From a virus (lineage: Duplodnaviria; Caudoviricetes), in the IMG/VR virus record IMGVR_UViG_3300017780_003662, positions 880 through 64,879 of that record: DNA of 64,000 nucleotides. The stretch is one strand, 5' to 3'. Below, piece after piece: positions 26,858-44,379 of the stretch (position 1 is its first letter; every line of letters begins with the position of its first letter). The notes beneath the pieces were generated by a model. The model was not told the origin of the DNA. It made no database searches and was given only the letters and a program-made list of their open reading frames with translations. Position numbers and translations under genes: made by a program.

Positions 26858-26871
26858 TTTGGTTTCTAACG

Positions 26872-27219
26872 TTAGAAGTCGTCGGGGGTATCGGCATCAG
26901 CCAGCGGGCGCCCAAACTCTCGCCAGTTCGACTGGACAGTGTCTAAATTGTCCAGCAAGTCTAAATTAGACTCGTTGATGACAAGTGCCAGCCCGCCGGC
27001 AACCTCGATCTTCTCAAGGTTGCGCAGCTGGAGCTGAGTGGGTTTGTTCTTGCCCGCCTTGCACTCTATCCCAACAAACCGGCTGCGGTAGCAGGCCAGA
27101 ATGTCAGGAGTGCCGTTATTAGCAAACTGGCCGCCAATGTAATTGACCGCATACGCGTTGGCTTTCTTGAGTTTGGCATGGACTTTAGCCTTGACCTTAC
27201 TCTCTGGCGTGGTTGCCAT
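26872..27219 (-). CDS. VRR-NUC family nuclease (Holliday-junction resolvase-like)
   Basis: ESKVK, GTPDILAC, IECKAGKNKPTQLQ. Confidence 0.85.
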   Translation of the reverse strand: MATTPESKVKAKVHAKLKKANAYAVNYIGGQFANNGTPDILACYRSRFVGIECKAGKNKPTQLQLRNLEKIEVAGGLALVINESNLDLLDNLDTVQSNWREFGRPLADADTPDDF

Positions 27220-27583
27220 TCTCGATCTCGATTAGTTTGTCCAGATAGTGCCGGGCTTTCTCCAGGTCCTGCACCCCGCCCTTCTCACGAAAGCGCATGA
27301 TGTACGCCAGCGCGCTACCATCAAAGAACCCCATGCCGTTACGCTCGATGATCTCCCAGGGCTGGATGGCAAGCCGCGTGTAGTGATCTCCGCCAACCTG
27401 CCGGGTGTCGACTGAAGGTAGTGTGGGTGCGGGTGTGGGCGCGTCCGGCACCGTGTCTTGCGCCAGCGCGCGCTTCGCGGCGTAGACCGTTACTCGCGAT
27501 ATCTTAAGCTTCTGTGCCAGCTTGGCCACGGACAAGTCGGGGTTCTTTTCTAGCGCTTGTCTGACGCGGTCTTTAGCATTCAT
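27197..27583 (-). CDS. HTH fused to a DUF3310-like domain
   Basis: LSVAKLAQKLKISRVTVY; RQVGGDHY...IQPW...GSALAYIMR...DLEKARHYLDKLIE. Confidence 0.72.
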   Translation of the reverse strand: MNAKDRVRQALEKNPDLSVAKLAQKLKISRVTVYAAKRALAQDTVPDAPTPAPTLPSVDTRQVGGDHYTRLAIQPWEIIERNGMGFFDGSALAYIMRFREKGGVQDLEKARHYLDKLIEIENGNHARE

Positions 27584-27600
27584 GTACTACTCCTGTAACG

Positions 27601-28062
27601 TTAAACTAAATCTTTAGTGCGGCCTGCGGCACGCTCGCGTTCCACTAGCTTGATCGCACGTTCCAAGTCTTTGACGGTGATGACTTCCAGCTGCGCATCG
27701 TGCAGCTCCATGAGCAAGTTAAGCGCCTGCAGTTCGTCGGCTTTCAGCACAAACTTACCCAGCTTGTGCTGCCGTTGAGCCACTTCAATAAGCGCAGCTT
27801 GCCCAGCGTCCATCTCGGCTTTGTACTCAGTACCAAATCCCATCAAGTACAAAGCCTCGACAACGTTGGCTGCCGATATCAGCCGGTTGAAGTCCTCTTT
27901 AGTTGCTTGCCCCTGCGCCAACGAAACCATGGACGCATGGGTTTTTATCTTCAACGTAAGAACGTGCGGGTTATGGCTAGCTAGCGGAGTTACGCTTTCA
28001 ACTACATACCCGATTGGATCTACAAGTACGGGTCTTGGTTTATATCGGCTTCGTTTGCGCAT
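27601..28062 (-). CDS. Hypothetical protein
   Basis: 153 aa in operon context; stop lies in a degenerate palindrome copy. Confidence 0.65.
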   Translation of the reverse strand: MRKRSRYKPRPVLVDPIGYVVESVTPLASHNPHVLTLKIKTHASMVSLAQGQATKEDFNRLISAANVVEALYLMGFGTEYKAEMDAGQAALIEVAQRQHKLGKFVLKADELQALNLLMELHDAQLEVITVKDLERAIKLVERERAAGRTKDLV

Positions 28063-28071
28063 CTCAAATAA

Positions 28072-28749
28072 TTATTGGACCTTACCACTCAGCCAGAACA
28101 AACCGATAGACAGTGCAACGGCCCCGCCAGCAAGTGCCAGCCCGGCCGGGCCAAGCCCTACCATAGACACTATCCCTAACGGCACGCCGAACATAAAGCA
28201 CAGCGCCGAAGCTGTAGAAAGAAACCGCTTGAGCTTACTGGCTGGAGGCGCCGCGGGCTCCTCTATCCGAGGGGGCCGCACAACTCGCGGGCGGGTGCGC
28301 GGCGCGGGCACTACGCTGTACGGAGTTATTACACTCGACGCTGCTATCGCCTCACGCACGTTGGCTGGCGGATGGGCAGTATACACATCATTAGCGGCCC
28401 ACTGCTCCGGAGCATTTACCGAGCGCGCGGTGCCAGGGGTAGACGGGGTCATGGAAGTCCGAGGGGTTACAAAGGTTCCAGTGGACTCGGGCGGATAGAT
28501 ATTCACGGGTGCGGTACCTCTCTCTATAGTCGATTCAAGTCGAGCAATCTTGCGCTCAAGAAAACGGATATGCTCGATTGCCTGTTGCACGATGGGCTTG
28601 TCAGAAACCTCTGACGGGGGATGATGCTTATAAAACGTCTTAACTGGATTGAGATCGCTAAAGCTGACCTGCTTTTTAGGCGACTCATCCAGCGGCACTA
28701 TCAACAGCTGGCGGTACAGGGACGGCGGAAGGGTCGGGCGCAGTGACAT
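28072..28749 (-). CDS. Hypothetical protein with C-terminal TM hairpin
   Basis: Coiled coil, Pro-rich linker, two hydrophobic C-terminal helices. Confidence 0.55.
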   Translation of the reverse strand: MSLRPTLPPSLYRQLLIVPLDESPKKQVSFSDLNPVKTFYKHHPPSEVSDKPIVQQAIEHIRFLERKIARLESTIERGTAPVNIYPPESTGTFVTPRTSMTPSTPGTARSVNAPEQWAANDVYTAHPPANVREAIAASSVITPYSVVPAPRTRPRVVRPPRIEEPAAPPASKLKRFLSTASALCFMFGVPLGIVSMVGLGPAGLALAGGAVALSIGLFWLSGKVQ

Positions 28750-28782
28750 TGGAGCCTCCAGGCAAAATCGGGCCGTACTTTT

Positions 28783-29145
28783 TTATTTCTTATCCCCTTC
28801 CCCCAAGGTAACGGCGTGGTGGAAGCACATCTTCGTGGCGAGCTGGTCATATGCCCTCGGACCCTCCCACACCCACTGATAAGTCGAAGTCCCGCGGGCG
28901 GACTTGATCTCGACGTTGCCGAAGGTCTGCCTGCAGCCTTTAGCAGTCACCTGCCACCTGTCGCTAAACTCGTCTGACCCAACCTCCCACAACGCACTGA
29001 GCACCGCGGGGCCTTTTGGCACGGTGTTGTGCAGAGTGGCGGGCAGCATGACGTATCCGGTCTTGTTAATCGTGAACGCCCACTCTGAAGGGTCGGCCGA
29101 CGCCACAGCGGGCAGAAAGAGCATTAGTGGTAACAACTTCTTCAT
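28783..29145 (-). CDS. Secreted/periplasmic protein
   Basis: Signal peptide MKKLLPLMLFLPAVASA; two Cys. Confidence 0.6.
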   Translation of the reverse strand: MKKLLPLMLFLPAVASADPSEWAFTINKTGYVMLPATLHNTVPKGPAVLSALWEVGSDEFSDRWQVTAKGCRQTFGNVEIKSARGTSTYQWVWEGPRAYDQLATKMCFHHAVTLGEGDKK

Positions 29146-29164
29146 GGTTCATCTCCTGGTTTAG

Positions 29165-29362
29165 TTACTTATTACGGGCTTCAATCATGGCGTCGGCGTA
29201 ACGGTACGCCAGCGTGGCAACACGGGCCTGCGCAGTCTTGCCCAGCGCCTCATCCAGACGGGTCTGCATGAACAGCTCAGGGTTACTCAGAATCGCTTGC
29301 ATCGCCTGGGTAGCGATCTGGTCGCGCGGCAGTAAAACGGCAGTAGTCATCTCGTCCCCCAC
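29165..29362 (-). CDS. Hypothetical protein (RD.IA..AMQAI...AY.YADAMI.AR)
   Basis: Motif typical of small phage early proteins. Confidence 0.55.
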   Translation of the reverse strand: MGDEMTTAVLLPRDQIATQAMQAILSNPELFMQTRLDEALGKTAQARVATLAYRYADAMIEARNK

Positions 29363-29462
29363 AAAAATTTATCAATAATCTCACCCAGCAACAGCACCCA
29401 AACGGTAAGCCCGGTTATGGTGCATAGGTGCAAGATCCACTGCATCCAATGCGGTAGCTTGT

Positions 29463-29654
29463 TCATTTCTCTTTACTCCTCTGCTTCTCATCACGCCGGC
29501 CTGCCTCAAAACCTTTCAGCCAAGCATCAGCAAGCATCCACTGAAGCGTAAATCCAGGCTCACCGCGCTCGCGCTGCGTGTAGTTGGTACGCTCCCATAG
29601 CTGCGCCAGTTTCTCGCCCATATCGCGGGCATGTGTTCGCTTTGGTGTTTTCAT
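29463..29654 (-). CDS. Hypothetical protein
   Basis: ATGA-coupled to the upstream gene. Confidence 0.5.
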   Translation of the reverse strand: MKTPKRTHARDMGEKLAQLWERTNYTQRERGEPGFTLQWMLADAWLKGFEAGRRDEKQRSKEK

Positions 29655-29830
29655 TTTTTCCTAAGATCCTCAGCGCACTTTAACCAGCCTTCTTCTTCAA
29701 GCCACTGAACACACGCCTCGCGCTCGGCAGCGGCGACAAGGGCGGCGAAACGGCGCAGCGATCCGTTGTCTCCATCAAAGCCAACAAATCCAGCCTCCCG
29801 CGCCATGCGGGTAATGTCGTCACGGTTCAT
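29651..29830 (-). CDS. MNRDDI.RMAREAG...AEREAC family small protein
   Basis: Paralog of 30120..30422. Confidence 0.6.
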   Translation of the reverse strand: MNRDDITRMAREAGFVGFDGDNGSLRRFAALVAAAEREACVQWLEEEGWLKCAEDLRKK

Positions 29831-30123
29831 TTCTCTTCCCTTGCTGGGATAGCGCTGGCGCAACTTGATGTTACGGCCGTGTTCGGAAGGCTCCAGCATC
29901 GCTTAGCGTTTAGTTGCGTTTGCTTGTCCAACCGCAAGTCGTACACCTCCATGATGCGTTGCATATCCCCCGGAGCCTTGACCATGGTAATGCAGTCCTG
30001 ATCCGTGTCCGTGAACACCGGGTAGTCCTCATGGTCGAACGTGTCGCACACGATGACCATGTGCCGCTTGCTTTGCTCTACGCCACTGTCAAACCATCTC
30101 TCAATCATTTCTCTCGTGGTCAT
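29827..30123 (-). CDS. Hypothetical protein (IVCDTFDHEDYPV)
   Basis: ATGA overlaps at both ends. Confidence 0.6.
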   Translation of the reverse strand: MTTREMIERWFDSGVEQSKRHMVIVCDTFDHEDYPVFTDTDQDCITMVKAPGDMQRIMEVYDLRLDKQTQLNAKRCWSLPNTAVTSSCASAIPAREEK

Positions 30124-30422
30124 TTCGCTCCCCTTGCGCGGATGGCGGCTGCTACGCCCGCTTTGTTTCGTCCTGGCTCGGTAGCCAACTTCAGACACTC
30201 CTCGCGCTCGGCCTTTACGCCGCCATCCCACCCGCACCGATAACATTCGGCAATTTCAAACGCCCTGTGCTCGCGCTCGGCAGCAGCGCCAGCGGCAAAG
30301 GCTAGTTCAGCAAACTTCTCAAACCCAGTCTCAGCCAACGCCAGCATCCACACTTCGTCATTGATGCAGCTTCGTTCTGCGCCGGCTTGTCGGGCCATGC
30401 GAATAATTTCATCGCGCTTCAT
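30120..30422 (-). CDS. MKRDEIIRMARQAG...AERE...AAAIRARG family small protein
   Basis: Paralog of 29651..29830; internal AERE duplication. Confidence 0.62.
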   Translation of the reverse strand: MKRDEIIRMARQAGAERSCINDEVWMLALAETGFEKFAELAFAAGAAAEREHRAFEIAECYRCGWDGGVKAEREECLKLATEPGRNKAGVAAAIRARGAK

Positions 30423-30595
30423 TTCTCTCCCCTCAGCCGCTCATACTCAGGCAACAGCGCTTTTGCTTCCTCTGGCATAACCATAATCCACACGATCATC
30501 TTGTGAAGGTCTAGCGGCAGCGTCCCGTGTTCAATCTCAATGCTGCTCTTGCCTGGGATGCTGGCTTTGTATTTGGTTTTGATGGTTTCGCTCAC
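30419..30595 (-). CDS. Hypothetical protein (58 aa)
   Basis: Hand translation MSETIKTKYK...RGEK; 4-nt overlaps at both ends. Confidence 0.55.
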   Translation of the reverse strand: MSETIKTKYKASIPGKSSIEIEHGTLPLDLHKMIVWIMVMPEEAKALLPEYERLRGEK

Positions 30596-30750
30596 GAGTT
30601 CTTCTCCTTCAACGGCTCACTCACAATCCGCCCGCACCACCGGCAATCACGATGGTAATAGCCGTCGTAAATCCATGCCGCACGCGGGAATGGGTGGTTG
30701 ATCTTCTTGCATAGCCACACGCCAAAACGGTACAGAATCGGCTCATCCAA
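30592..30750 (-). CDS. Small C/H/CxxC putative Zn-binding protein ending LKEKNS
   Basis: TTG start after GGAG; WLC...H...CRWCG; DUF1660-like spacing. Confidence 0.55.
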   Translation of the reverse strand: MDEPILYRFGVWLCKKINHPFPRAAWIYDGYYHRDCRWCGRIVSEPLKEKNS

Positions 30751-30844
30751 CGTTTTTCTCCCATTTCAATATCGCCCAGCTAATCAGCCCACCGAACAAA
30801 CCAACTCCGACTATTGCCAGCAACTCAAAACAATCACTTGTCAT
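30743..30844 (-). CDS. 33-aa single-TM peptide
   Basis: MTSDCFELLAIVGVGLFGGLISWAILKWEKNVG; AAGGAG upstream. Confidence 0.45.
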   Translation of the reverse strand: MTSDCFELLAIVGVGLFGGLISWAILKWEKNVG

Positions 30845-31268
30845 CGTTCTTCTCCTTCAACTTGACTTCGATGGCGCGGGCAAATTCATGCAACTGGCTC
30901 ATGCTGAATCCATCAAAGTACAGGTCTTCAATCTCCTCATCCGTCAGCCCAATCCACTCGCGGGAGGGTGCGGCGGCCATGTCAAGCAAACTGCGAGCGT
31001 GGTCGCGCTCATAAGGCGCATGGCACCATCCAAACCAAACCGCCATTGGATGCGACATAAGAGATCGGGCATCGTCTGGCGTAACGTTGCGATAAACCAC
31101 AGTCATCGTCCGATCATTCGCCACCGGCTCCTGCTTCTCTGCCTCAGCTATCGCAGAGCGGAGGGTGACAATGACTTCTGAATGTGCGTCCAAGTCCTTA
31201 TCTGAGTTGGAATAAGGATGCGATTTGTTCAACGCCTCAAGCGCCTGTTTCATCGCTTCAATACTCAC
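30834..31268 (-). CDS. Framework-array protein (MSIEAMKQALEAL...KLKEKN)
   Basis: All four conserved blocks present. Confidence 0.75.
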   Translation of the reverse strand: MSIEAMKQALEALNKSHPYSNSDKDLDAHSEVIVTLRSAIAEAEKQEPVANDRTMTVVYRNVTPDDARSLMSHPMAVWFGWCHAPYERDHARSLLDMAAAPSREWIGLTDEEIEDLYFDGFSMSQLHEFARAIEVKLKEKNDDK

Positions 31269-31696
31269 GCGTTCTTCTCCTTCAACTTGGCTTCGATGAT
31301 GTCGCGCAACTTCAACAATGAGTCGTCACACACCTCGCCATCTGGCGTCCACCAGTGCATTTCCTTTGGGTCGTCGTCGTTGTCGTAATCCTCGTGAATG
31401 TCAAACCCAGCCTGATACGCAGCGACCATTACATCCTCATCCGTCAGTCCAGCCCACTCGCGGCGGGGTGGCACGAGAATCGTCTGTATCTGGCTGTCGG
31501 CACTACGCTGCCCGCGGTAGACGTTGCCGTCGCCGTAGCAGTCCATCTCCTGCTGCACATCCTGTCCGGATGCCTCAGCTATCGCAGCGCGGAGGGCGTT
31601 AAAAGCGCGATATTGAAGTACGCGCCATTCAGCTTTGGACATATCATGCTTGCTGTCCAACGCCTCAAGCGCCATCTTCATTGCTTCTATACTCAC
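31265..31696 (-). CDS. Framework-array protein
   Basis: GTG start in a GTGA overlap; four conserved blocks. Confidence 0.75.
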   Translation of the reverse strand: MSIEAMKMALEALDSKHDMSKAEWRVLQYRAFNALRAAIAEASGQDVQQEMDCYGDGNVYRGQRSADSQIQTILVPPRREWAGLTDEDVMVAAYQAGFDIHEDYDNDDDPKEMHWWTPDGEVCDDSLLKLRDIIEAKLKEKNA

Positions 31697-32136
31697 GAGT
31701 TCTTCTCCTTCAACTTGGCTTCGATCTGGTCGAACAGCTTGCGGGTGTAGCCTTTGATGGGCGTATCGCCCCACGGCCCGATGATTTCTTTTATCTCCTC
31801 ATCCGTCAGCCCAGCCCACTCGCGGCGGGGTGGGACAACTTCCCATATCTTTTCTGGAAACGGCTCCTTGTATATCGACGCAGGATCAATCCGTTTCCCG
31901 CCTAGTGTGATGCCCATGCCGTAGATGGCTTGATCCGCCACAGCAGTCTCAATCGCTTGCTGCACATCCGTAAGCTGCTGCATGGCAGCCTCAGTTATCG
32001 CGGCGCGGAGGGCTGCGCGCACAGGGCCGTTGCGATCAACGTAGTCATCGCAGTGCGAACAACGATGGCCGGGGTCGTCGTGCTCGTCCGAGCAAGTCAG
32101 CGCCTCAAGCGCTTGCTTCATTGCTTCTATACTCAC
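31693..32136 (-). CDS. Framework-array protein
   Basis: Four conserved blocks; Cys/His-rich first variable segment. Confidence 0.75.
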   Translation of the reverse strand: MSIEAMKQALEALTCSDEHDDPGHRCSHCDDYVDRNGPVRAALRAAITEAAMQQLTDVQQAIETAVADQAIYGMGITLGGKRIDPASIYKEPFPEKIWEVVPPRREWAGLTDEEIKEIIGPWGDTPIKGYTRKLFDQIEAKLKEKNS

Positions 32137-32357
32137 GCGTTCTTCTCCTTCATCAAATCACCGAGGGTGTTAGCAAACCGAGTCAATTGGTAAATCACAA
32201 CCTCATGCGACATACCAAGATGAAAACTCATGCCAGACTCTCGCATCGCTTTGATAACGTCGTTCTTTGCCAGCCCAACCCACGGCTTTTCCAGACACGA
32301 CACACAATAAAGCGCCCATCCGTCCTGCTTGCTTTTGCCACACTCATCGCACGTCAT
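32133..32357 (-). CDS. Partial framework-array protein with CxxC-CxxC N-terminus
   Basis: CDEC...CVSC, PWVGL, KEKNA. Confidence 0.6.
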   Translation of the reverse strand: MTCDECGKSKQDGWALYCVSCLEKPWVGLAKNDVIKAMRESGMSFHLGMSHEVVIYQLTRFANTLGDLMKEKNA

Positions 32358-32566
32358 GCTTCCACCTGAAGTAGTCTGAGCTTCATGCGCTCAAGCAACC
32401 AGAGAACCGTCCCACCATCTGCGTAAGATGACGCGAAATATTCTTCGCCATCAGGTGTCCAACCCATAATCGCCACGCCTTCCAGTTGCCCGATAGCTGA
32501 CTCAAGAATTGCATCTGGCGGCAAATCAAGTTTGGTAATGCCGGTAAATGGAATGACTTTACTCAC
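32354..32566 (-). CDS. Hypothetical protein (70 aa)
   Basis: GW..DGEEYFASS..DGGTVLWLLER; coupled overlaps. Confidence 0.65.
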   Translation of the reverse strand: MSKVIPFTGITKLDLPPDAILESAIGQLEGVAIMGWTPDGEEYFASSYADGGTVLWLLERMKLRLLQVEA

Positions 32567-32928
32567 GAGTTCTTCTCCTTCAGCTTGGCTTCGATGGCTT
32601 GCGGATTCCGTTTGATCGTGAATTGAAGCGTCCCATTGTTGTAGGACTGGAAAGCATCAATCCTCATGTCACTTGGCAGCATCATGCGGCACGACTCATT
32701 CCACCATTCGACCCGCCAATTCTTTCCGTTTTTTGGCTCACGCAGGTCGTCTGCCGTCAGCCCAACCCACTCAAGATTTGGACGCAACGGCAGGAGTAGC
32801 TTTGATACGTAAACCGAAATGTCGTCGCACCCCGGTTGCCATCTCTGTGCTGCCGTTTCAATGTTGTCCCAGTGATAGGTTGTGGTGCCATCTGCGTTAA
32901 TGCGACAAATCTCACTGTTTTCTGTCAT
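32563..32928 (-). CDS. Partial framework-array protein (blocks 3 and 4 only)
   Basis: EWVGLT...AIEAKLKEKNS. Confidence 0.65.
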   Translation of the reverse strand: MTENSEICRINADGTTTYHWDNIETAAQRWQPGCDDISVYVSKLLLPLRPNLEWVGLTADDLREPKNGKNWRVEWWNESCRMMLPSDMRIDAFQSYNNGTLQFTIKRNPQAIEAKLKEKNS

Positions 32929-33113
32929 GTGTTGCGCTCCTTAAGCTTTGCAGCAATGTCTCTTTCAATCATCAGCCGCTCTGTTTGTGCATCAACAGGT
33001 ACACCCCACCTGCCGCATTCGCGGCATTGCCAGTTGATGCGCCCGTAGCAATCCCGTTTTATGTCCCCGCCGTGGAACCAACTGCACCACTTATCCATTA
33101 GCCAACTAATCAC
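32925..33113 (-). CDS. Small C/H/CxxC protein ending KLKERNT
   Basis: WC.WFH...CRECG; paralog-like to 30592..30750. Confidence 0.6.
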   Translation of the reverse strand: MISWLMDKWCSWFHGGDIKRDCYGRINWQCRECGRWGVPVDAQTERLMIERDIAAKLKERNT

Positions 33114-33481
33114 GGGTTCTTCTCCTTTAACTTGGCTTCAATGGCGCGGGCAAAGTCGTAGACTCCGCTGGTTTCGTAGCTTTCAATCTGGCAAGCCAGC
33201 ATTGCGTCAGCCGTTTTCGCAATCTCCTCATCCGTCAGCCCAACCCACTCGCGGCGGGGTGGGTGGGTGTATAACGCCATGCCAGTAGGCAGCACAACGT
33301 GCTCTATCGGCCTCACGACGAGATGCCCGTCGTAGTAGCCTGTTACGTAGGCGACCGGCTCCTGTTTTTCTGCCTCAGCTATCGCGGCACGGAGGGCGGT
33401 GACGGCGTCACGTTGTTTTTGCATGCGGTCAGCGGTTAATTCCAGCGCCTCCAATGCCATCTTCATAGCTTCGATGCTCAC
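33110..33481 (-). CDS. Framework-array protein
   Basis: Four conserved blocks. Confidence 0.75.
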   Translation of the reverse strand: MSIEAMKMALEALELTADRMQKQRDAVTALRAAIAEAEKQEPVAYVTGYYDGHLVVRPIEHVVLPTGMALYTHPPRREWVGLTDEEIAKTADAMLACQIESYETSGVYDFARAIEAKLKEKNP

Positions 33482-33855
33482 GAGTTTTGCTCCTTCAGAT
33501 GCGCGTCCACCGCCCGCAATACGCCCTTGCCTAACTCGTCCAAGCCAAGCTCCTCAGACCAAAAGTTCAGGTCGTCTTCAGTTAGCCCAACCCACTCGCG
33601 GCGAGGGGGGTGGGTGTAGTACGGAATTTCTTCCAGCCCAAGCTCGCGCGCTTCTTCTGGATAAATGGCTGGCCTCTGCTCCATCTCCTGCTGCACATCC
33701 GTAAGCCGCTGCATCGCTGCCTCAGCTATCGCGGCGCGGAGGGCATCAATGGCTTTGTGTTGTTGGTGCAGTTGGGCTTTGACTCCGTAATCCTCAATAA
33801 CCGGCAAATTCCATTCCAACGCCGCAAGTGCTTGCTTCATGGCATCAAGACTCAT
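33478..33855 (-). CDS. Framework-array protein
   Basis: Four conserved blocks (slightly diverged). Confidence 0.75.
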   Translation of the reverse strand: MSLDAMKQALAALEWNLPVIEDYGVKAQLHQQHKAIDALRAAIAEAAMQRLTDVQQEMEQRPAIYPEEARELGLEEIPYYTHPPRREWVGLTEDDLNFWSEELGLDELGKGVLRAVDAHLKEQNS

Positions 33856-34145: not shown

Positions 34146-34318
34146 GCTTGCTCCTTGGGTGGGGGTGTGAACTGACTAAGTGCGGCTTTGACAAGCTCGC
34201 GGGCGTGGCTGGCATCTTCTCTCCCGGCTGCGGTCTGTAAGTGGGCTCCGGAATGCACAGCGATACCGAGGATACTGTCAGCTGCCTTTAGTGCCTTCAT
34301 CACCAACTCCAGATTCAT
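34142..34318 (-). CDS. Hypothetical protein (58 aa)
   Basis: Hand translation MNLELVMKALKAADSILG...KEQA. Confidence 0.5.
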   Translation of the reverse strand: MNLELVMKALKAADSILGIAVHSGAHLQTAAGREDASHARELVKAALSQFTPPPKEQA

Positions 34319-35923: not shown

Positions 35924-35924
35924 G

Positions 35925-36320: not shown

Positions 36321-36321
36321 G

Positions 36322-36705: not shown

Positions 36706-36706
36706 G

Positions 36707-37867
36707 TCAGTCTCCGATGTACACCGTCGTGCCGTGAGGGCTTCTAACGTTAGAAGTTACGGCCCACAGCACAGGGTAGCCAGGGGGCTGGCCGAACGGA
36801 GTCTCGCCGTCAGTCAGCACTACACAGGCGTCGGGCTTGATCTGGTGCTTGAGCAGGTAATCGAACGCTACAGGCAGGTCGGTGCCTCCGCCTCCGCGGG
36901 GCTTGAGCTCGGCCACGGCAAACTGCCCGTTCTCGAATGTCTGGTGGGAGGCCACCTGGGTGTCCACGTACAGCACGTCAATAGTAGCGGGGTTAACCTG
37001 CTCGATAATGGCAGCCAGCTCCGAGACGAACCGCGTCGCTTCAGTCGAGTTAAAGCACGAGCCGCTCGTGTCCAGCACGACAGCCAAGCGCGTCATAGTA
37101 GTGCCCTGCATGGACGGCATATAGATGTCATGCGCCAAGTACCGTCTGCTAGGCCGACGCCACGTAGACTCGTCGGTGCCTGCGCAGTGCTCGCTCACGA
37201 ACTCACGCAGTGCCCTGCGCCAGTCGACCTTGGGGTGCAGCAAGCCGTCGAACCCCAGGTCCGCAGTCAGCCCGAGGGCCTGCGCCCGGCGCTTGGCAAG
37301 TATCTCACCTTGGCGTAGCGCCTGGTCTATCTGCCGCAGCCGGACCTGGTCGAGCTCCTGCTGGGCTTGAGCGTCGGACGGGTCGCCGTCCACAGCCTCC
37401 CAGTCGTGGTCATCGAGCCCACCGGCATCGGGCGGGGGGTTCTCCTTGAGGTGCTTGTATATCTGGATCACTGACCAGCCGTGGTACTGCGGGTCGGGCT
37501 GCACGCCGACAGCTGGCATGGACAGAAACCCCTCGCCGTTGTCCATCTCGATCAGCGATAGATTCACGAAGTGGTCGGCGGCGATGTTAGCCAGCCGCGA
37601 GTCCTCTCTCCACAGTGTGCGCCACACCACGTTGTGCCGGTACGCCTTGTGCTGCTGCTCGTGCAGGATGAGCAGGCGCAGCTGAGGGTCCGTGAAATCT
37701 TTGAAAAACTCCGGGTTAAAGTACGTGTTCCACCCGTCCGTGCAGGCTGTCCGCACGTCGGTGGTCAGCTTGGTGGTCCCGCATGCCATGACCCCGCTGT
37801 ACCGGCAGAACCTCGGGTGCCGCATGATAGAGATACGCGCCTTGTTGAACCTGTCCGTTGTATTCAT
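36707..37867 (-). CDS. HExxH metallopeptidase-like + VWA domain protein (DUF2201-like)
   Basis: ACTDG, LHEQQH, NIAADHFVN; MIDAS DTSGS, GGGTD, VLTDG. Confidence 0.85.
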   Translation of the reverse strand: MNTTDRFNKARISIMRHPRFCRYSGVMACGTTKLTTDVRTACTDGWNTYFNPEFFKDFTDPQLRLLILHEQQHKAYRHNVVWRTLWREDSRLANIAADHFVNLSLIEMDNGEGFLSMPAVGVQPDPQYHGWSVIQIYKHLKENPPPDAGGLDDHDWEAVDGDPSDAQAQQELDQVRLRQIDQALRQGEILAKRRAQALGLTADLGFDGLLHPKVDWRRALREFVSEHCAGTDESTWRRPSRRYLAHDIYMPSMQGTTMTRLAVVLDTSGSCFNSTEATRFVSELAAIIEQVNPATIDVLYVDTQVASHQTFENGQFAVAELKPRGGGGTDLPVAFDYLLKHQIKPDACVVLTDGETPFGQPPGYPVLWAVTSNVRSPHGTTVYIGD

Positions 37868-37909
37868 CGTCGTTCCTTCCTGTTAAGGGTGGCTTAGTGG
37901 TGTCTAACG

Positions 37910-38305
37910 TTAGAATCGGTAGTACCAGTCCTCACCTGCTATCTCGATGATGCTGTAGTCGCTGGCTACGTTCTTGGCGGTCTGCTCCCAGTCCACCACG
38001 ACGTACCAGGGCAAGTTACTAGGTATGTCGCCGCAGTCCTCAAGCATCTGCTGCACGTAGTCCTCCCAGTGCCCGCCTGCAACGAGGTAGTCCGCGTCGC
38101 CTATCTCCTCGACGATGTCCAGCAGCATGCGCAGCTCGATACCCTCGGGCTGGTTCTTCTCCCATACCTCGATGGCCTCCTCCCATGCGTCGGAGTCCTC
38201 GATCTCATCGAGCCCAGTCTCCGCCATAAACGAGTCGCGCTCGTCAGCCAGCTCGTCGATCCGGGCATTTATCTCATCCTTGGTGACAGTGTCTTGGTTA
38301 AACAC
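37910..38305 (-). CDS. Highly acidic protein, possible DNA mimic / antirestriction protein
   Basis: About 36 D/E vs 7 K/R in 131 aa (hand count); LPWYVVVDWEQTAKNVASDY resembles the ArdA C-terminus. Confidence 0.5.
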   Translation of the reverse strand: MFNQDTVTKDEINARIDELADERDSFMAETGLDEIEDSDAWEEAIEVWEKNQPEGIELRMLLDIVEEIGDADYLVAGGHWEDYVQQMLEDCGDIPSNLPWYVVVDWEQTAKNVASDYSIIEIAGEDWYYRF

Positions 38306-38468
38306 GTTTCTTACCCCGCAGTAGTGCCCTCTGAATGGCGTAGTAGTCGTAGGTCCGCACTGGCGCAGGTGGCTTGGGTGTATACCCCCGCCCGAGCCAC
38401 GCCGGGTTCCAATCCTTGAAAAACTTAACGCACGTCCGTCCGTTCTCGATCCCTAGCATTAGCATCAT
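38298..38468 (-). CDS. Hypothetical protein (56 aa)
   Basis: Hand translation ...GRGYTPKPP...AIQRALLRGKKRV; ATGA overlap. Confidence 0.55.
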   Translation of the reverse strand: MMLMLGIENGRTCVKFFKDWNPAWLGRGYTPKPPAPVRTYDYYAIQRALLRGKKRV

Positions 38469-38710
38469 TGCCTCCGTGAAGTAGCTTTGTTGATAGCAGC
38501 GCGAGCCTTGATGAACACATCCTGCGCAGTGTCCTCGTGTCCTCTGAACATCTCCTCCATCAGTAGTAGTGCAGCCAACAAGTCCGGCGCAGCGTCAGTC
38601 AACCGCCGACGTCTGGCCGACTCAAGAAAGTTCGGGCACGGCTGTACGGTACCTCTGTCTATACCGGGGTCGTCTCCGCAGTAACACAGGCAATCGCAAG
38701 CAGTGAGCAT
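38465..38710 (-). CDS. Hypothetical protein (Cys-rich head + AAPDLLAAL...ARAAINKA)
   Basis: Motif common in small phage proteins. Confidence 0.6.
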   Translation of the reverse strand: MLTACDCLCYCGDDPGIDRGTVQPCPNFLESARRRRLTDAAPDLLAALLLMEEMFRGHEDTAQDVFIKARAAINKATSRRQ

Positions 38711-38728
38711 GGTGTATCTCCTTTCGCC

Positions 38729-38926
38729 CTATACAGGGGGGTTTTGACGGGCTACGTACTGCTCCAACATCTCAATGAGCAGCTTCCTACGGTCTGGCTG
38801 GTGCCGCGGGTCCTTGAGATGCTGCAGGATCAATATCAGTAACTCTCTGAACGTCTCATCCCGCGCCCGGTAAGAGCCCACCAGGTCATTCACATTCTTA
38901 ACCAGCTCGGATACTTTAGCGTCCAT
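38729..38926 (-). CDS. Hypothetical protein
   Basis: MDAKVSELV...; overlaps the upstream stop. Confidence 0.5.
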   Translation of the reverse strand: MDAKVSELVKNVNDLVGSYRARDETFRELLILILQHLKDPRHQPDRRKLLIEMLEQYVARQNPPV

Positions 38927-39236
38927 CAGCAAGGCCCTCCGGTAGTTCAACTTCGTCACCCAGTTTGCTGGCGACGTAGCAGCGCATTGCTGCGATTAGG
39001 GGGGTGGGTCCGTATTCATGTTCTCTGTTGCTCATTGCAGCAAGTGCTTTCCAACGGCATGAATCGTCGTAAAGCAGTGAAGGCTCATAAATCACTGCAA
39101 TCTTTTCCTGTTCGATGATCGGCCCGCCTTGTGCCCAGTCGGTCGAATATCTAGGCACTGCGGTGGGTTTGTACTCGCCGATTGCTTTCGCCACCGCCCA
39201 ATCAAGGGCGGCGCCTGTCAGTTCACTTGTTCTCAT
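38916..39236 (-). CDS. DUF2591 / NinX-like protein
   Basis: SELTGAALDWAVAKA, YSTDWAQGGPIIE, GPTPLIAAMRCYVASKLGDEV. Confidence 0.8.
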   Translation of the reverse strand: MRTSELTGAALDWAVAKAIGEYKPTAVPRYSTDWAQGGPIIEQEKIAVIYEPSLLYDDSCRWKALAAMSNREHEYGPTPLIAAMRCYVASKLGDEVELPEGLADGR

Positions 39237-39475
39237 ATACCCTCCGCTCTGCGTATCGCCTCACGGGCGATGTTTTCGAAAGTCTGCCAAGCCACTGGCA
39301 TAACGTCGAAGTGCTGTTGATACGCGTCAGTCATGCTCTTAAGTGCAGCGAGCAGGGTGTGCAGGTCGGCGGCCGCGCGCTCCAGCTCCGGCACCTTGTA
39401 GTACGGCCACTGCTCCTCGGGATACTCGCCTTTGATAGTGTCGATGGCGAACAGAAACAACTTGTGTATGTGCAT
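39233..39475 (-). CDS. Hypothetical protein
   Basis: GGAG RBS; ...LLAALK...AREAIRRAEG. Confidence 0.55.
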   Translation of the reverse strand: MHIHKLFLFAIDTIKGEYPEEQWPYYKVPELERAAADLHTLLAALKSMTDAYQQHFDVMPVAWQTFENIAREAIRRAEGI

Positions 39476-39485
39476 GTCAGTCTCC

Positions 39486-40541
39486 TCAGAATAGTTTGCC
39501 AAGCTCAGCGGCTTTCTTGCGGAACGCCGCGTTGGCGCAGCCCATGGGGGCCTTGGTGCGGTCACCTGCTAGTGACGTGACGAACACAGCCGTTGCCTCG
39601 AACGCGTCCCACCTGTTGACGTAGGCCATGATGGCGTCCAGGGTGTCCGCCCGCGCCTCCGCCACTAACTGAAACGCCAAGATAAAGTAACCCGCTGTGT
39701 CCTTGGGCAGTGGCGCAAGCGCAGGACTGTCCAGGATAGTGCGCACCGGCGGCAGCTTGTCGGACACACGCAGCAGGGCGTCCATGTCCCGAGCGGCGCT
39801 CTCACCCAAGGTGCCGATGAGCGCAGGTAGTGTCGCCTCACCTAGCGCATGGCGGTGCCGGACGATGTGAGAGGCATGGGCCAGGCTGCGAGGGCTACAG
39901 AACGCACGCACGTTGCCAGTGCGAGGGTTAAATATGTACGGGTTCTTGGTGTCGGGGTTGTTTGCGTAACACTCGAACACCTGAGAGTACTGCTCCGCGA
40001 ACGCGCAGACCTCCGCAGCCACGTTGTTGTCCTGAGCCCACTGCAGCCACTCGCCTGACGTCGGGTTGGCCAGCGGTATAACTGTCATGCGGTTGTACAC
40101 GTGGGCAGGTATGTTGTCCCCCACCCCGTCAGTGTCCAGGTTAGTCGTAGCGAACACGATACTGCCAACGGGCAGGAGGTGGTCGCCCAACCGACGCTCA
40201 AGGATGACAGGCAGCAACATGTTGAGCACAGGCCGTGGCGCCTTACCCAGCTCATCTAACATTAGAAGCACAGGCCGTGGCTGGTGCACACCAAACCGAG
40301 TGCTTGGCGCGTATGACGTAGTGGGCGTGGCGGTGTCCCGGTTAATCACAGGCAGGCCCAGGTCGCCCAGGTCCAGGTTAGCGCAGTCGACATAGCACGG
40401 GTGATAGTCCGGCATGTGCCGGGCAAGGGTGTGCAGGATGCTCGACTTGCCGATGCCAGGCTGGCCCCGCAGGAGGATAGTATTAGTGTGCCCGCAGGTC
40501 CGGATAAGGGTCACCGCTTGGGCAAGGTTGATAGCAGTCAT
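39486..40541 (-). CDS. MoxR-like AAA+ ATPase
   Basis: Walker A GQPGIGKS, Walker B MLDE, sensor-I ATTN, R-finger NRM, SPRS. Confidence 0.85.
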   Translation of the reverse strand: MTAINLAQAVTLIRTCGHTNTILLRGQPGIGKSSILHTLARHMPDYHPCYVDCANLDLGDLGLPVINRDTATPTTSYAPSTRFGVHQPRPVLLMLDELGKAPRPVLNMLLPVILERRLGDHLLPVGSIVFATTNLDTDGVGDNIPAHVYNRMTVIPLANPTSGEWLQWAQDNNVAAEVCAFAEQYSQVFECYANNPDTKNPYIFNPRTGNVRAFCSPRSLAHASHIVRHRHALGEATLPALIGTLGESAARDMDALLRVSDKLPPVRTILDSPALAPLPKDTAGYFILAFQLVAEARADTLDAIMAYVNRWDAFEATAVFVTSLAGDRTKAPMGCANAAFRKKAAELGKLF

Positions 40542-40556
40542 GATGGGCCTCTAACG

Positions 40557-41351
40557 TTAGATAGTGGTAGTGTGGGCTGGGGCGGCACGGGGGAGGACCG
40601 GCGGCAGCGTGACGTAGTCCGTGTCGATGGTCTCGTACATGTCCCCCTTGGCAGACGTGCGTATGTCTCGGGCAACGGTGCGCGGGTCGTCAATCTTGTG
40701 GCTCAGCTGCCATTTCTGGTGATACCCGAACACCTCCACGATGAGCGGCCAGTTGACCGGGTCCTGCAGGGCTTCGCGCAGGCTGCCGGCATACAACGAA
40801 TAGCCTCGCGACAGGTGCACCGGCCTACTATCCGGCAACGCTGCGTGCAGGACAGGCAGGGTATGGAAAAACTCCTTGATCGTGGGATCCTTAGAAAAGG
40901 CAGAGGACCGCTCGCGGTTGATAGCCCGCCGCTTGAAAGGCACAGGCTCCAGCGGTGTGCCGCTGGCTGCTACCTGCACCCCATCATAAAAACAGAACGT
41001 GCCGGCGCTCGTGTACAGCACCCACTGCGACACCCCCCGATGAGTCGTAGCCCCGACCGAGAGTCGGAAAGTGGCGTGCTGGGTGCGGGCATACATGTGC
41101 AGAGCAACGCTGAGCGCGTCGCGAGTCACCTGCGTAGACCAGCCCCGGTTAAACAGCCGAAACGTGCCGTCACGTGCAGCTGACACCAGCACCGACCGAT
41201 AGACATACACCTCCATCGTGTCGTCCCTTGAGTTGTACCGGACACGCTTGTGAGTGGCGCCGCGGCGCTCAAGCGGCGCGTCCCCCTCGAACCGGCCGCG
41301 CTTGTACTTGTGAGTTTGCAGATGCTTATACAGAGTCTCGAAGAAAGTCAT
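40557..41351 (-). CDS. Hypothetical early protein (264 aa)
   Basis: Flanked by palindrome copies; AGAGG RBS. Confidence 0.65.
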   Translation of the reverse strand: MTFFETLYKHLQTHKYKRGRFEGDAPLERRGATHKRVRYNSRDDTMEVYVYRSVLVSAARDGTFRLFNRGWSTQVTRDALSVALHMYARTQHATFRLSVGATTHRGVSQWVLYTSAGTFCFYDGVQVAASGTPLEPVPFKRRAINRERSSAFSKDPTIKEFFHTLPVLHAALPDSRPVHLSRGYSLYAGSLREALQDPVNWPLIVEVFGYHQKWQLSHKIDDPRTVARDIRTSAKGDMYETIDTDYVTLPPVLPRAAPAHTTTI

Positions 41352-41373
41352 GATTGGCCTCTAACGTTAGAAA

Positions 41374-41637
41374 CTAAACGCGCAACTCTTTTGCCAAGTA
41401 GCGCAGAGCTGTGTCGATATGGGCGTCGTTCAGGTAGGCGTACAGCGTGGAGCAGGCGAACAGATGCAGCTGTGCCCCGTTGAATAAATCCCACATCAGT
41501 CGTTTATCCACATTTTTTACGGCGGGGTTTTGTCGCAAGCGGTCTTTGTAGGCGGCAATACGCTCCCGCCCAGTTTGGGCAATCACACGTTCCAATTCGG
41601 CGCGTAGATGGGCAAGATGCTCAGGTGTAATTTTCAC
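41374..41637 (-). CDS. Hypothetical early protein
   Basis: YLNDAHIDTALR; operon context. Confidence 0.6.
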   Translation of the reverse strand: MKITPEHLAHLRAELERVIAQTGRERIAAYKDRLRQNPAVKNVDKRLMWDLFNGAQLHLFACSTLYAYLNDAHIDTALRYLAKELRV

Positions 41638-41639
41638 AA

Positions 41640-41849
41640 TTAGCTCCTCTTGGGGTTTAGTTGGCAGAGCATGGCGGGGTCCGTGATCAATACATAATTA
41701 GACTTAGATAGAGGGGCAATCGTGTGCTTGCGGGCACGGGCAGCACGCTCACCGCAGGACATACACACGGTGTATCCGAGATTGGCACGAGCATGTTGAA
41801 GGCGATTGATACCGCAGTCAGTGCAGATGGGGTTTCGCGTAGGTAGCAT
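41640..41849 (-). CDS. Zn-finger small protein
   Basis: CTDC...CMSC...HTIAPLSKSNY..ITD. Confidence 0.65.
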   Translation of the reverse strand: MLPTRNPICTDCGINRLQHARANLGYTVCMSCGERAARARKHTIAPLSKSNYVLITDPAMLCQLNPKRS

Positions 41850-41907
41850 GGTGGGCCTCTAACGTTAGAAGGGGGGCTAGCTGGAGGTGAGTTACCAGCG
41901 TATATAC

Positions 41908-41936
41908 ATTATAGCATATATTTTACTCTTTGTCAA
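41908..41936 (-). promoter_or_regulatory. Consensus sigma70 promoter
   Basis: TTGACA-17 bp-TATAAT with extended -10 TG. Confidence 0.9.
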
Positions 41937-42222
41937 GCTCAGCCTCTCGCAACAGCTGGTGGACCCGCTGCCGAGAAATACCAAACTGCGCACCTGCTTC
42001 GGCGTATGTCATACCGCCGACCGTTGTTAAATGCCGGAGTTGTGCAGTTCTATCGGGGGCTGCGGGCGGTCGCTTGTACCGACCCTCACGAATAGCCTCT
42101 ATAGCATCTAATAGAGGCATGAGTTTGTTGGGCATACGTACATAGCGCACACCATTTATATATAGGATAGGCAAGGGCACGCCATTGCGGCTCGGAAATA
42201 CTTCTAATATTAGATTGTCCAT
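41923..42222 (-). CDS. HTH protein (sigma region 4-like)
   Basis: MTYAEAGAQFGISRQRVHQLL. Confidence 0.72.
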   Translation of the reverse strand: MDNLILEVFPSRNGVPLPILYINGVRYVRMPNKLMPLLDAIEAIREGRYKRPPAAPDRTAQLRHLTTVGGMTYAEAGAQFGISRQRVHQLLREAELDKE

Positions 42223-42257
42223 ATGTAAAAAACCTTAGAGTGTATATACAAGCATAT

Positions 42258-42286
42258 AGTATAACACAGACAATACGGGTTGTCAA
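42258..42286 (-). promoter_or_regulatory. Sigma70 promoter
   Basis: TTGACA-17 bp-TATACT with extended -10 TG. Confidence 0.85.
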
Positions 42287-42340
42287 GAGTGTATAAATGG
42301 GCGGAAAATGCAGAGGAGGGGAAAAAACGAAAAAGTGAAA

Positions 42341-42780
42341 ACGTAACAAACTATCGGCCTTAAATCAACGGCTTGCGAGGGAGAAATGGTATAGCATATG
42401 GATGAAACACGTAACAGAAAAGTCGTTCTGGATCAACGCTTGTTACGTTTGTATAAATTGACGTAACAGAAAAGTCCTTTAAAATCAAAGGGTGTGGTGT
42501 GTTATGCGTTATTTAAAAAGAGAGAGAGCGAAAAAGACCTTTTGAGCAAGAATACGCGCAGGCGCCTTCCCTAACCCCCCTTAAGGCTTTTCGGCTTTCA
42601 TAAAAACTGACGTAACAACATAACATAACTATAATGTTTTATTTATTTATAGAACTTTTCTTACTATTCCCCCTGCCGAATCAGCCACTTAGCAGGGGGG
42701 TATTAAATAGCATACTAAGTTATTTCGAGCTCGTACCCTTCTATTATGATTTGCGTAACATCGTAACGCGCCGCGTTACG
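42341..42780. repeat. AT-rich non-coding region with ACGTAACA repeats and an IHF-consensus site
   Basis: ACGTAACA at 42341, 42409, 42461, 42610 and inverted at 42441; AATCAAcggcTTG at 42363. Confidence 0.55.
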
Positions 42781-43120
42781 GAGCGTCCTGCTCGACGCGC
42801 GCTATTAGTGTTACATAGTCGCCTGTGCGCTCGACCCTGAACGGCTTTGCGAGCATAGGTGCAATCTCGCGTATGCGGGCCTTGGTGAAGTTGTGAGCCA
42901 GCAGCTCGAACTCCTCTAACGTTAGAATCAGCTCCACGCCCTTGCGGTCTGTGCGCGTCACCACGAGCGAGCCGTCCGGCTGCGTCTTGCATGAGAATCG
43001 CTTGCGCGTCTGCGTGCCGTACGTGTGCACGTACGTGCGCGCCTTGGCTGCGAGGTCTGCCGGGATGGTGCAGGACTGGCCAACGTCCAGGTGCTTAAAC
43101 GGCCACGACTTGTTGCGCAT
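42776..43120 (-). CDS. Hypothetical protein (WPF..L.VGQS..IP)
   Basis: Same motif type as 17379..17624; contains a palindrome copy. Confidence 0.65.
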   Translation of the reverse strand: MRNKSWPFKHLDVGQSCTIPADLAAKARTYVHTYGTQTRKRFSCKTQPDGSLVVTRTDRKGVELILTLEEFELLAHNFTKARIREIAPMLAKPFRVERTGDYVTLIARVEQDAP

Positions 43121-43259
43121 GTGCGCCTCCTATACTGAATGAATACGTAGCATAGCACATTCTAACGTTAGACTCCTCCCCCGCCCGCTCGCAACCACTA
43201 TGACGCGCCCACAGCTCGCTCGCTCGCTTAAAACCACTATGACGTTTCGCCCGATGGGC

Positions 43260-43287
43260 GAAAAAAAGCCCCGGCGATTGCCGGGGC
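43260..43287 (-). terminator. Intrinsic terminator
   Basis: GCCCCGGC-aatc-GCCGGGGC followed by 7 T on the - strand. Confidence 0.85.
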
Positions 43288-43291
43288 GGGG

Positions 43292-43378
43292 TTACCATTC
43301 TAGGAATAGGCCGACTAAGCACACAACCACAAAGCCCGCCAGAATCAAGATTCCTAATTCCTGTCCGATTGTTAGCAT
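43292..43378 (-). CDS. 28-aa single-TM peptide
   Basis: MLTIGQELGILILAGFVVVCLVGLFLEW; GAGG RBS. Confidence 0.5.
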   Translation of the reverse strand: MLTIGQELGILILAGFVVVCLVGLFLEW

Positions 43379-43539
43379 TCTGGGTCCTCATTCAGGAATT
43401 CCCGCTCTAGTACGTGGCGCATAAGCCCGTCACAACCGCGCAGTATGTCTTGCACGGTAAGGTCTATGCGCACCTGCAGCGCCGGATCCAGATTGCCGCT
43501 TTCGCGGCACTCGATTAAAAGACTTAGAATTTCAATCAT
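43372..43539 (-). CDS. Hypothetical protein (55 aa)
   Basis: MIEILSLLIEC...; AGGGG RBS. Confidence 0.5.
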   Translation of the reverse strand: MIEILSLLIECRESGNLDPALQVRIDLTVQDILRGCDGLMRHVLEREFLNEDPEC

Positions 43540-43567
43540 GTTATGCCCCCTTGTGTATTGTGTAGGA

Positions 43568-44149
43568 TTAGTTGACCGCTTTCGGAATGGCCCACAGGTT
43601 ATAGTCTTGCAAGACTCCGCGTATTTCCTCTGCAGCGTCTGTTTCCCCGACTTGTGTTAGAGCGTGCACCAGCGCGGCCGCTTGGCCTACTACGCTCGCG
43701 CGGGTGAGGGTTTGCACGGGCTTAGGCTTTTTGCCGGCCTTGGTATCCGCTGCGAGACCTTCGCCCACTTCAAGGGATTCGGTTTCGGCCTTGGGCTTTT
43801 GCTTGCGATACTTGGGATCATTAAACAAGCCCGCGCGAAACGGAACACCGTAGTCAAAAGCAATCCCTAATGACGTTTTATAATTGCGCAGGGCAGATTC
43901 ACCCAATTCGGGGAACGCGCCCCCATCGCGTGCGGGCAGAAAGACTTTTGACCACACGTCCTCGATGAAGGGTTTGCGCCCGATACCCGCGGTGCGGGCA
44001 TGATCGAGCAGGGGCTGGATAACGGCCGCGCGTGATACGTGGGCTTTTTCAATTGTCTTTCCAATTTGCTCACCGATTTTGACCAGCTTTGCGCGTGAGG
44101 ATTCAAGCATCGATTCGGGAAGCGTCTTGATGATGTCATTGGTTTTCAT
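43568..44149 (-). CDS. First gene of the early arm, hypothetical (193 aa)
   Basis: Directly downstream of the 44218-44246 promoter; AAGG RBS. Confidence 0.65.
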   Translation of the reverse strand: MKTNDIIKTLPESMLESSRAKLVKIGEQIGKTIEKAHVSRAAVIQPLLDHARTAGIGRKPFIEDVWSKVFLPARDGGAFPELGESALRNYKTSLGIAFDYGVPFRAGLFNDPKYRKQKPKAETESLEVGEGLAADTKAGKKPKPVQTLTRASVVGQAAALVHALTQVGETDAAEEIRGVLQDYNLWAIPKAVN

Positions 44150-44217
44150 GGTCTGACCTTTGCAATATCTTGGGGATCCGCCCCGTGTCGGACACGCTGT
44201 TATCAGCGCATGAACGA

Positions 44218-44246
44218 ATCATACGCTACCCTTGACGCTTTGTCAA
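44218..44246 (-). promoter_or_regulatory. Sigma70 promoter
   Basis: TTGACA-17 bp-TATGAT; -35 lies in the inverted repeat TTGAC-gcttt-GTCAA. Confidence 0.85.
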
Positions 44247-44379
44247 ACCGGGCGCGCTCTAACGTTAGAATCGGCCCCGGCCGGACCCCACCCTACCCGG
44301 TACCCCCCAAGGGCTGTTTGGGTCCGCCGGCTCGCTATGTGCTGAGTTTTATATCCACTAAACCCACTTAGCCAAGCTA

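Follow-up and report, generated by a model that had tools for sequence, protein, structure and literature searches.

Why should a phage genome carry the same short palindrome nine times along one of its two arms? The stretch analysed here (the window) comprises 64,000 nucleotides, bases 880-64879, of the IMG/VR record IMGVR_UViG_3300017780_003662, a complete phage genome of 64,879 bp with direct terminal repeats, and the element in question is the perfect 12-bp palindrome TCTAACGTTAGA. An exact search of the window returned exactly nine copies, against none in 100 dinucleotide-preserving shuffles, which bears out both the number and the positions given in a preliminary description of this DNA; the remainder of the record holds no additional copy. 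Allowing up to two mismatches adds three near-copies: one at 27594, one at 40255 with TG as its sense-strand centre, and one at 42203 with the centre AT. All twelve lie within 26.8-44.3 kb, and the structural arm is without any. A literature search for the exact motif gave no match. We consider that the sites are best read as an operator and roadblock network for a phage DNA-binding protein, and we put the probability of this reading at roughly 45%.

The leftward arm is a block of minus-strand genes that spans 44.15 kb to 17.4 kb. It opens with small early genes, continues with a MoxR-like AAA ATPase and its DUF2201/VWA partner and with many small genes, and includes a replication module of DNA polymerase, PD-(D/E)XK nuclease, SNF2 helicase and DUF927 primase-helicase. 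From 44.6 kb onward the genes for terminase, portal and virion proteins are read to the right. As had been described before, copies of TCTAACGTTAGA become sparser with distance from the divergence point at 44.3 kb. The sites, to which no strand is assigned, are as follows.

44258..44269: exact site that ends 11 bp before the first early promoter's -35; centre at about -52
43161..43172: exact site, separated by 6 nt from an extended -10 (TGcTATGCT) downstream; it fills the spacer/-35 zone of this promoter-like site, which belongs to the 114-aa gene
42915..42926: exact site inside the 114-aa gene (LTLE); orthologous site in genome G001
42203..42214: variant site (centre AT) in codons 3-7 of the sigma-region-4-like helix-turn-helix (HTH) gene, at about +40 from the promoter at 42286-42258
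41858..41869: exact site at about +37 from the 12/12 promoter at 41936-41908; the zinc-ribbon ATG follows after 8 nt
41360..41371: exact site between two genes; the 264-aa gene has its ATG 8 nt farther on
40550..40561: exact site between two genes; the 264-aa gene ends with its TAA, and the ATPase ATG follows after 8 nt
40255..40266: variant site (centre TG) within the ATPase gene, encoding L-M-L-D; the same in G001 and locus L276
37903..37914: exact site between two genes; the upstream gene ends with its TAA, and the DUF2201/VWA gene begins 35 nt farther on
36743..36754: exact site in the final 16 codons of the DUF2201/VWA gene
27594..27605: degenerate copy with 2 mismatches, in front of the gene at 27583-27197
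26865..26876: exact site with the stop of an Hjc-like endonuclease inside; the DNA polymerase ATG lies 7 nt downstream

Most of the positional details reported earlier withstood this inspection. The TAA of the copies at 26865, 37903 and 40550 is indeed the stop codon of the upstream gene; the early genes that start at 41849, 41351 and 40541 do share a leader in which the motif is followed by GGCC, four variable bases and ATG; and the two copies said to lie in coding sequence are read as SNVR (36743) and LTLE (42915). The copy placed just upstream of the first -35 was correctly located, but the gap is 11 bp and not 12.

Is the palindrome private to this phage? The suggested motif search in related genomes shows that it is not. 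The relatives are uncultured viral contigs, named G for genomes and L for loci, the loci being anchored on the polymerase and on the ATPase. More than 100 such contigs from IMG/VR carry 7-19 copies of an inverted repeat of their own in the same arm, and in almost every relative among the polymerase- and ATPase-anchored loci an inverted repeat particular to that relative is over-represented. The 15 genomes that were retrieved completely or for the most part have 4-17 copies each (at least 7 in all but one, 9-17 in most), and in all 15 the copies are restricted to one stretch of 10-20 kb. One relative is G001, a second genome of 64.9 kb, with nine exact copies and two near-copies, 9 of these 11 at places orthologous to window sites; at the place of the window's variant site 42203..42214 it carries the exact palindrome.

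The general layout is a pair of inverted half-sites of 5-6 bp, TCTAA and TTAGA, around a centre of 2-3 bp, extended to about 22 bp in many relatives. In the window the site is the 12-bp perfect palindrome, and its flanks are not conserved. Relatives carry TCTAA-N2-TTAGA with centres GC, TA, TC or CC, or TCTAA-N3-TTAGA, while the cores TTATAA, TCTTAA, TTTTAA and TTATAT sit in an element of about 22 bp with AAAC...TTT flanks. Distant members, with only about 39% identity in the ATPase, have unrelated 21-bp palindromes built on CACAC, CTGTC, CTACA, TAACA or TGCGA. The positions can persist while the sequence changes: at the 3' end of the DUF2201 gene (36743..36754 in the window) the genomes G001 and G005 and the locus L185 each carry their own version: the centre is CG in G001 as in the window and AT in L185, and G005 has a form of 13 bp. 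The site in front of the polymerase gene (26865..26876) likewise has orthologous sites in G001 and G005. The cis element is shared by the clade, and TCTAACGTTAGA is the form it takes in this lineage. Directly upstream of the polymerase-gene site, a partial-tRNA-like sequence was seen on the opposite strand at 44170-44200 in G001 and at about 19995-20024 in G005.

The placement of the sites relative to genes is equally regular. Across the 15 genomes, 154 of 185 sites (83%) are intergenic or overlap only a stop codon, compared to 16% of random positions in the same span, and 38 of the 185 have a stop codon inside the motif. Among the 152 intergenic sites, 82 lie within 30 nt upstream of a called start, a count that is an underestimate because the gene caller misses small genes. 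The typical site thus begins at or just past a stop codon and stands 7-30 nt ahead of the next start. Between one and four copies fall upstream of the first promoter or between units.

Such a position, just before start codons, is also what one would expect of an RNA element 5' of the ribosome-binding sites in a polycistronic early mRNA, read by a translational repressor or an endoribonuclease. The orientation bias of centres and hybrid sites toward the sense strand, described below, speaks for it as well. However, when the nine window copies were folded as RNA, seven reached only -0.9 to -5.3 kcal/mol, the z-scores against shuffled sequence ran from -1.8 to +0.5, and in none of the nine was the hairpin clearly more stable than in shuffled controls. 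Rfam families and tRNAs are absent from the window, inverted symmetry is meaningless to a reader of single-stranded RNA, and the copies upstream of the first promoter or between units also speak against it. We therefore regard an RNA element as quite improbable. The related proposal of the preliminary description, that the copies are self-complementary RNA sites that pair with one another, is disfavoured by the same weak hairpins and upstream copies, and by the hybrid sites to which we turn now.

Hybrid sites, in which one half reads TTCTAA and the other TTATAA, occur in the loci L246, L247, L268, L251, L252, L261 and L243, and in mixed genomes they are as frequent as symmetric sites. It follows that the half-sites are constrained independently and not by pairing, as they would be in a stem, and hybrids indeed break such pairing. 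Half-sites that are inverted but under no constraint to pair, and copies that precede the first promoter, argue for double-stranded DNA read by a symmetric protein. The variant site within the ATPase gene points in the same direction. Its L-M-L-D codons use CTA and TTA for leucine in the window and in G001 (57% and 54% GC), whereas other lineages use CTG, CTC or CTT for these leucines, a codon choice that, over the few lineages behind it, suggests selection at the DNA level. The surrounding LLMLD stretch can be read as the Walker B motif of the ATPase. As a class, the sites exist at conserved positions, are diversified by lineage, are confined to one arm and are independent of pairing.

How might such sites act? 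Promoter-like sites were called when at least 10 of 12 consensus positions matched, and the following transcription signals stand at the head of the arm.

44218..44246, minus strand: first early sigma-70-type promoter, TTGACA-17-TATGAT
just 3' of the site at 43161: extended -10 promoter-like site
42286-42258, minus strand: sigma-70-type promoter, TTGACA-17-TATACT
41936-41908, minus strand: sigma-70 promoter, 12/12 consensus
43268..43287, minus strand: strong intrinsic-terminator-like hairpin that closes the first early unit

Four of the 12 window sites are adjacent to a promoter-like site. A head-of-arm promoter-like site was found in the window, G001, G005, G009 and G015, in each case with a site centred -46 to -57 from the start point, and at later consensus promoters the site lies at +37 to +57 or at about +100, just before the ribosome-binding site. 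In G013 four sites are clustered in 140 bp after the first gene, which looks like a multi-operator region.

In the reading we favour, TCTAACGTTAGA would be recognized as double-stranded DNA by a symmetric, probably dimeric, phage-encoded protein. Host RNA polymerase would transcribe the leftward arm from its consensus sigma-70 promoters, and the protein, bound next to the -35 of the first promoter and within the spacer of the second, would prevent or modulate the start of transcription at both. At the other sites, found 35-50 nt past two further promoters or where genes meet, close ahead of ribosome-binding sites, the bound protein could form a roadblock to the elongating polymerase along the early/middle arm, much as stoperators or KorB operators do. 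Early and middle genes would in this way be shut off or gated together. We infer protein binding, repression and the roadblock mechanism from the arrangement of the sites. The preliminary description had proposed an operator for one of three HTH proteins that, as a dimer, shuts off the early genes; the general form of that proposal fits best, but the three proteins it named fail, as described below.

A different function at the same positions would be that of middle-gene promoters, possibly of the hairpin type used by phage N4, for an unrecognized phage RNA polymerase or a phage-modified host polymerase. There is about one site per gene, just upstream of the start, and sites of the N3 classes would form a 5-bp stem with a 3-nt loop, whose middle base would be a template-strand purine in about 46 of 65 cases; this recalls the N4 early promoters. 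On the other hand, a palindrome would fire both ways, the distance from site to start varies between 7 and 40 nt, sites also lie inside genes and upstream of a sigma-70 promoter, and the window form has a centre of 2 nt. The search for a phage RNA polymerase (PF00940 and Pfam scans) gave no match, and since the PF00940 control matched nowhere this null is uninformative. On balance we hold the promoter explanation to be very unlikely.

Two groups of observations weigh against the operator reading: the polarity of the element, and the failure to find a protein that follows it. The non-palindromic centres are strongly biased in orientation and rich in C on the sense strand, with CCA 14 times versus TGG once, CCG 12 versus CGG 2, GCC 9 versus GGC 0 and TC 25 versus GA 4; GG and CC (72 versus 60) show no bias. 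A tally of the listed hybrid sites is 25:2 in favour of one orientation, and these counts of centres and hybrids include related loci. Since one class after another shows this bias, the element is polar with respect to transcription, and this is not predicted by a purely symmetric operator. Moreover, the best-conserved positions are the inner ones beside the centre, which is unusual for classic HTH dimers.

For the second group, family alignments were sorted by site class for the sigma-region-4-like HTH, the zinc ribbon, the first early protein, an 80-aa HTH protein whose gene adjoins the primase, and DUF3310. Among the families of related loci compared, no protein was found whose variation tracks the site. 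The most obvious candidate is the following.

41923..42222, minus strand: 99-aa protein with a sigma-70 region-4-type HTH, a candidate binder that lacks co-variation support

Could this protein be the binder, as an autoregulated dimeric repressor? Its Pfam match to Sigma70_r4 scores 29 bits and passes the cut-off, a strong promoter precedes the gene, a site lies in codons 3-7 of the gene (variant in the window, exact in G001), and the sixth residue of its recognition helix varies by broad site group (H, G, N, V/T or K/Q). The recognition helix is nevertheless unchanged across the TCTTAA, TTATAA and TTCTAA classes, and an identical helix (SRQRVKQI) accompanies both N2 and N3 spacing. The N-terminal domain has been exchanged between phages of one site class (L248 versus L236). 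A profile search detected no homologue of the 99-aa protein in the complete genomes G010, G013, G015 and G016, which have 7-15 sites each. We consequently see this protein as an unlikely reader of the sites. The two other HTH proteins named earlier, at 20564..20806 and 27197..27583, do not co-vary with the site and were also set aside.

The remaining candidates fared no better. The zinc ribbon, the first early protein, the 264-aa protein, the 80-aa HTH protein and DUF3310 show no class-specific residues and leave the site class untracked, and the family of the 114-aa protein, in a profile search with its N-domain, is patchy. In a nearest-neighbour class test the family of the first early protein came first with 0.74, a margin over the ATPase baseline (0.60) that does not decide the matter. 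Among the plus-strand open reading frame (ORF) families of the ATPase-anchored loci, none reached a partial correlation above 0.3 between protein distance and site distance, and none had class-specific columns. A phylogenetic-incongruence test for the N3 spacing (G005) returned only a patchy small protein and a gene that adjoins the capsid gene. The 264-aa protein and the first early protein, modelled with AlphaFold at pLDDT 92 and 84, resembled no fold in the PDB, and the atlas look-ups yielded no relative with a name. From these null results it follows that the binder either draws its specificity from a few scattered residues, or is supplied by non-orthologous early proteins, or is encoded outside the compared regions.

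A ribbon-helix-helix (RHH) protein would be another kind of reader. At the end of the ATPase gene, half-sites occur three times in tandem with 8-bp spacing (L241 11054-11075, L246 5797-5818, L253 2275-2296), and by analogy to met boxes this arrangement hints at an RHH-type reader. In many relatives an RHH-like domain is fused to the sigma-region-4-like HTH family; stand-alone RHH proteins were not found in the window.

The main rival to the operator reading concerns recombination. Palindromes at the borders of gene cassettes might be joints, used through microhomology or by a phage nuclease, at which co-infecting relatives would swap, lose or flip early genes in the manner of the stem-loop cassettes of T4-type phages discussed below, and such junction sequences for modular exchange could coexist with regulation. 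In a breakpoint analysis based on the end points of blastn homology in 376 ordered pairs of related loci with 70-92% identity, 19% of the end points lie within 10 nt of a site, compared to 3.8% of random positions, and there are 3.2 end points per junction with a site versus 1.33 at other junctions. This enrichment is partly an artefact, because conserved islands beside divergent genes end alignments by themselves. Individual cases are in line with exchange: the alignments between L250 and L241 break at sites, in G013 a homologue of the 114-aa gene is inverted between two sites, and the early arm as a whole is highly mosaic. The phage also encodes a PD-(D/E)XK nuclease, an HNH protein and an Hjc-like endonuclease. 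Against a purely recombinational role, 12-22 bp is short for homologous exchange, the half-site types flanking a segment in L246 agree in only 5 of 8 segments (tally), and sites within conserved genes or clustered upstream of promoters are not cassette borders. Nor does recombination alone explain the sameness of all copies in a genome. Taken as the function of the sites, modular exchange appears to us rather unlikely, and it would possibly operate alongside regulation.

A more specific version of exchange had also been put forward, namely a collapsed integron attC site recombined by an integron-type integrase. The letters of the window core (TCTAAC/GTTAGA) do fit RYYYAAC/GTTRRR, and a stop codon and a ribosome-binding site flank the motif in the manner of a cassette. 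Yet the tyrosine integrase profile PF00589 had no match in the complete genome, while its control matched in 14 of 14 genomes, and the sites are without L boxes, unpaired bases and the 55-140-bp imperfect repeat of attC. The relatives' cores (TTATAA, TCTTAA, TTTTAA, CACAC) do not fit either, so the core is not conserved. Membership of the attC family is refuted by the missing integrase and the missing architecture, and a collapsed attC is barely credible as an explanation. What survives of the proposed cassette-exchange core is the enrichment of homology breakpoints at the sites.

Which known systems do the sites resemble? Closest in layout and in lineage-specific consensus, by analogy, are the stoperators of Cluster A mycobacteriophages. 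The L5 gp71-type immunity repressor binds many near-identical copies of a site of about 13 bp, which is asymmetric, is bound by a two-domain monomer, lies in both arms of temperate phages and serves lysogenic immunity (PMC9283540, PMC6550527). As in the window, the many copies are found at promoters and in short intergenic spaces, often touching stop or start codons, and their consensus differs between related phages. The orientation of stoperators follows transcription; here the half-sites are symmetric, but the centres and hybrids are biased in orientation, in counts that include related loci. The sites in the window differ from stoperators in being inverted repeats, in their restriction to the early/middle arm and in belonging to a phage without an integrase or ParB, and no homologue of a stoperator-type repressor was found here.

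In symmetry and in the mixture of promoter-proximal and promoter-distal positions, the operators of KorB are probably the closest parallel. On the IncP plasmid RK2, 12 OB operators of this protein, palindromes of 12-13 bp, make up one global regulon. Both systems have palindromes of this size about a dozen times, some adjacent to promoters and others distant or at gene ends. Here, however, the half-site is another one, the carrier is a phage and not a plasmid, and the ParB/KorB N-terminal domain PF02195 was not matched in the genome, with a control that matched in 11 genomes. The promoter-early stem-loop cassettes (PeSLs) of T4-type phages consist of a sigma-70 promoter and a terminator hairpin and are long enough for homologous exchange (PMC2839356). 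They are alike in being repeated elements that border small early genes in a hyperplastic region where breakpoints are concentrated, but most sites here are without a promoter or a stable hairpin and measure only 12-22 bp.

Could regulation and exchange be two sides of one system? We can envisage a fast-diversifying, polar palindromic 'gene-junction code' of a large lytic clade, in which a new kind of binder gates early transcription by the host polymerase and at the same time defines the joints of cassette exchange, although we consider this combined view rather doubtful. Among the recognisable HTH, RHH, zinc-ribbon and ParB candidates, none fits as its reader. If it were true, a change of the code would isolate a lineage both in regulation and in recombination, and a function as recombination joints would account for the early arm being so extremely mosaic. 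Should the sites be operators, a clade of more than 100 IMG/VR contigs would run its early programme via a single global regulator, and the drift of specificity between close relatives would offer a natural system for the joint change of a protein and a dozen sites. Because the regulator seemingly belongs to no recognised family, its discovery could add a DNA-binding fold or a new way of polar roadblocking. The motif also serves as an annotation rule for gene starts and for the boundaries between early and late arms in metagenomic phages.

The phage itself stands apart from cultured ones. A nucleotide search against cultured phages gave no match; the nearest at the protein level are Rhizobium phage RHph_TM3_14A and Pseudomonas phage KPP25 (34-37%), and none exceeds about 36% polymerase identity to the clade. 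Its lifestyle looks lytic, and it appears to use the host RNA polymerase. In the large virion proteins the domains are limited to LPD38 and ART-like ones; the 2049-aa protein of the virion arm (11229-17378) has an LPD38 domain and a weak ART-PolyVal match.

Several genes next to the sites deserve mention in their own right. The DUF2201/VWA protein (36707-37867) and the MoxR-like AAA ATPase (39486-40541) are a pair conserved midway along the early arm. PHROG labels 36707-37867 as 'HNH endonuclease', but this is an error; the gene product is DUF2201 metallopeptidase-like and VWA-like. Beside the ATPase, the 264-aa protein (40557-41351) is conserved in 65 loci, without a Foldseek match in the PDB and without a Pfam or PHROG family. 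The 69-aa C4 zinc-ribbon protein (41640-41849) is conserved in 50 related loci and occurs as two alleles that reassort independently of site class; its cysteine spacing resembles that of TraR/DksA-type RNA-polymerase binders, a likeness drawn from the sequence with no database match behind it.

Two further stretches of the window contain other repeated sequences. Between 42290 and 42776, about 490 bp of AT-rich DNA without a convincing ORF contain TGTTACGT five times in both orientations (6 in the whole window versus 1.35 expected) and two promoter-like sites on the plus strand; the plus-strand ORF at 42634-42840 was rejected as not protein-like. G013 has a comparable AT-rich stretch with GTTACG words. 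The stretch in the window may serve as an origin or as another set of operators. Where the first early promoter and the small-terminase-like gene leave a gap, a 29-bp unit is repeated in 4.4 tandem copies at 44395-44523, with weaker copies that reach about 44620, and this array may be a packaging or terminase-binding array or an origin.

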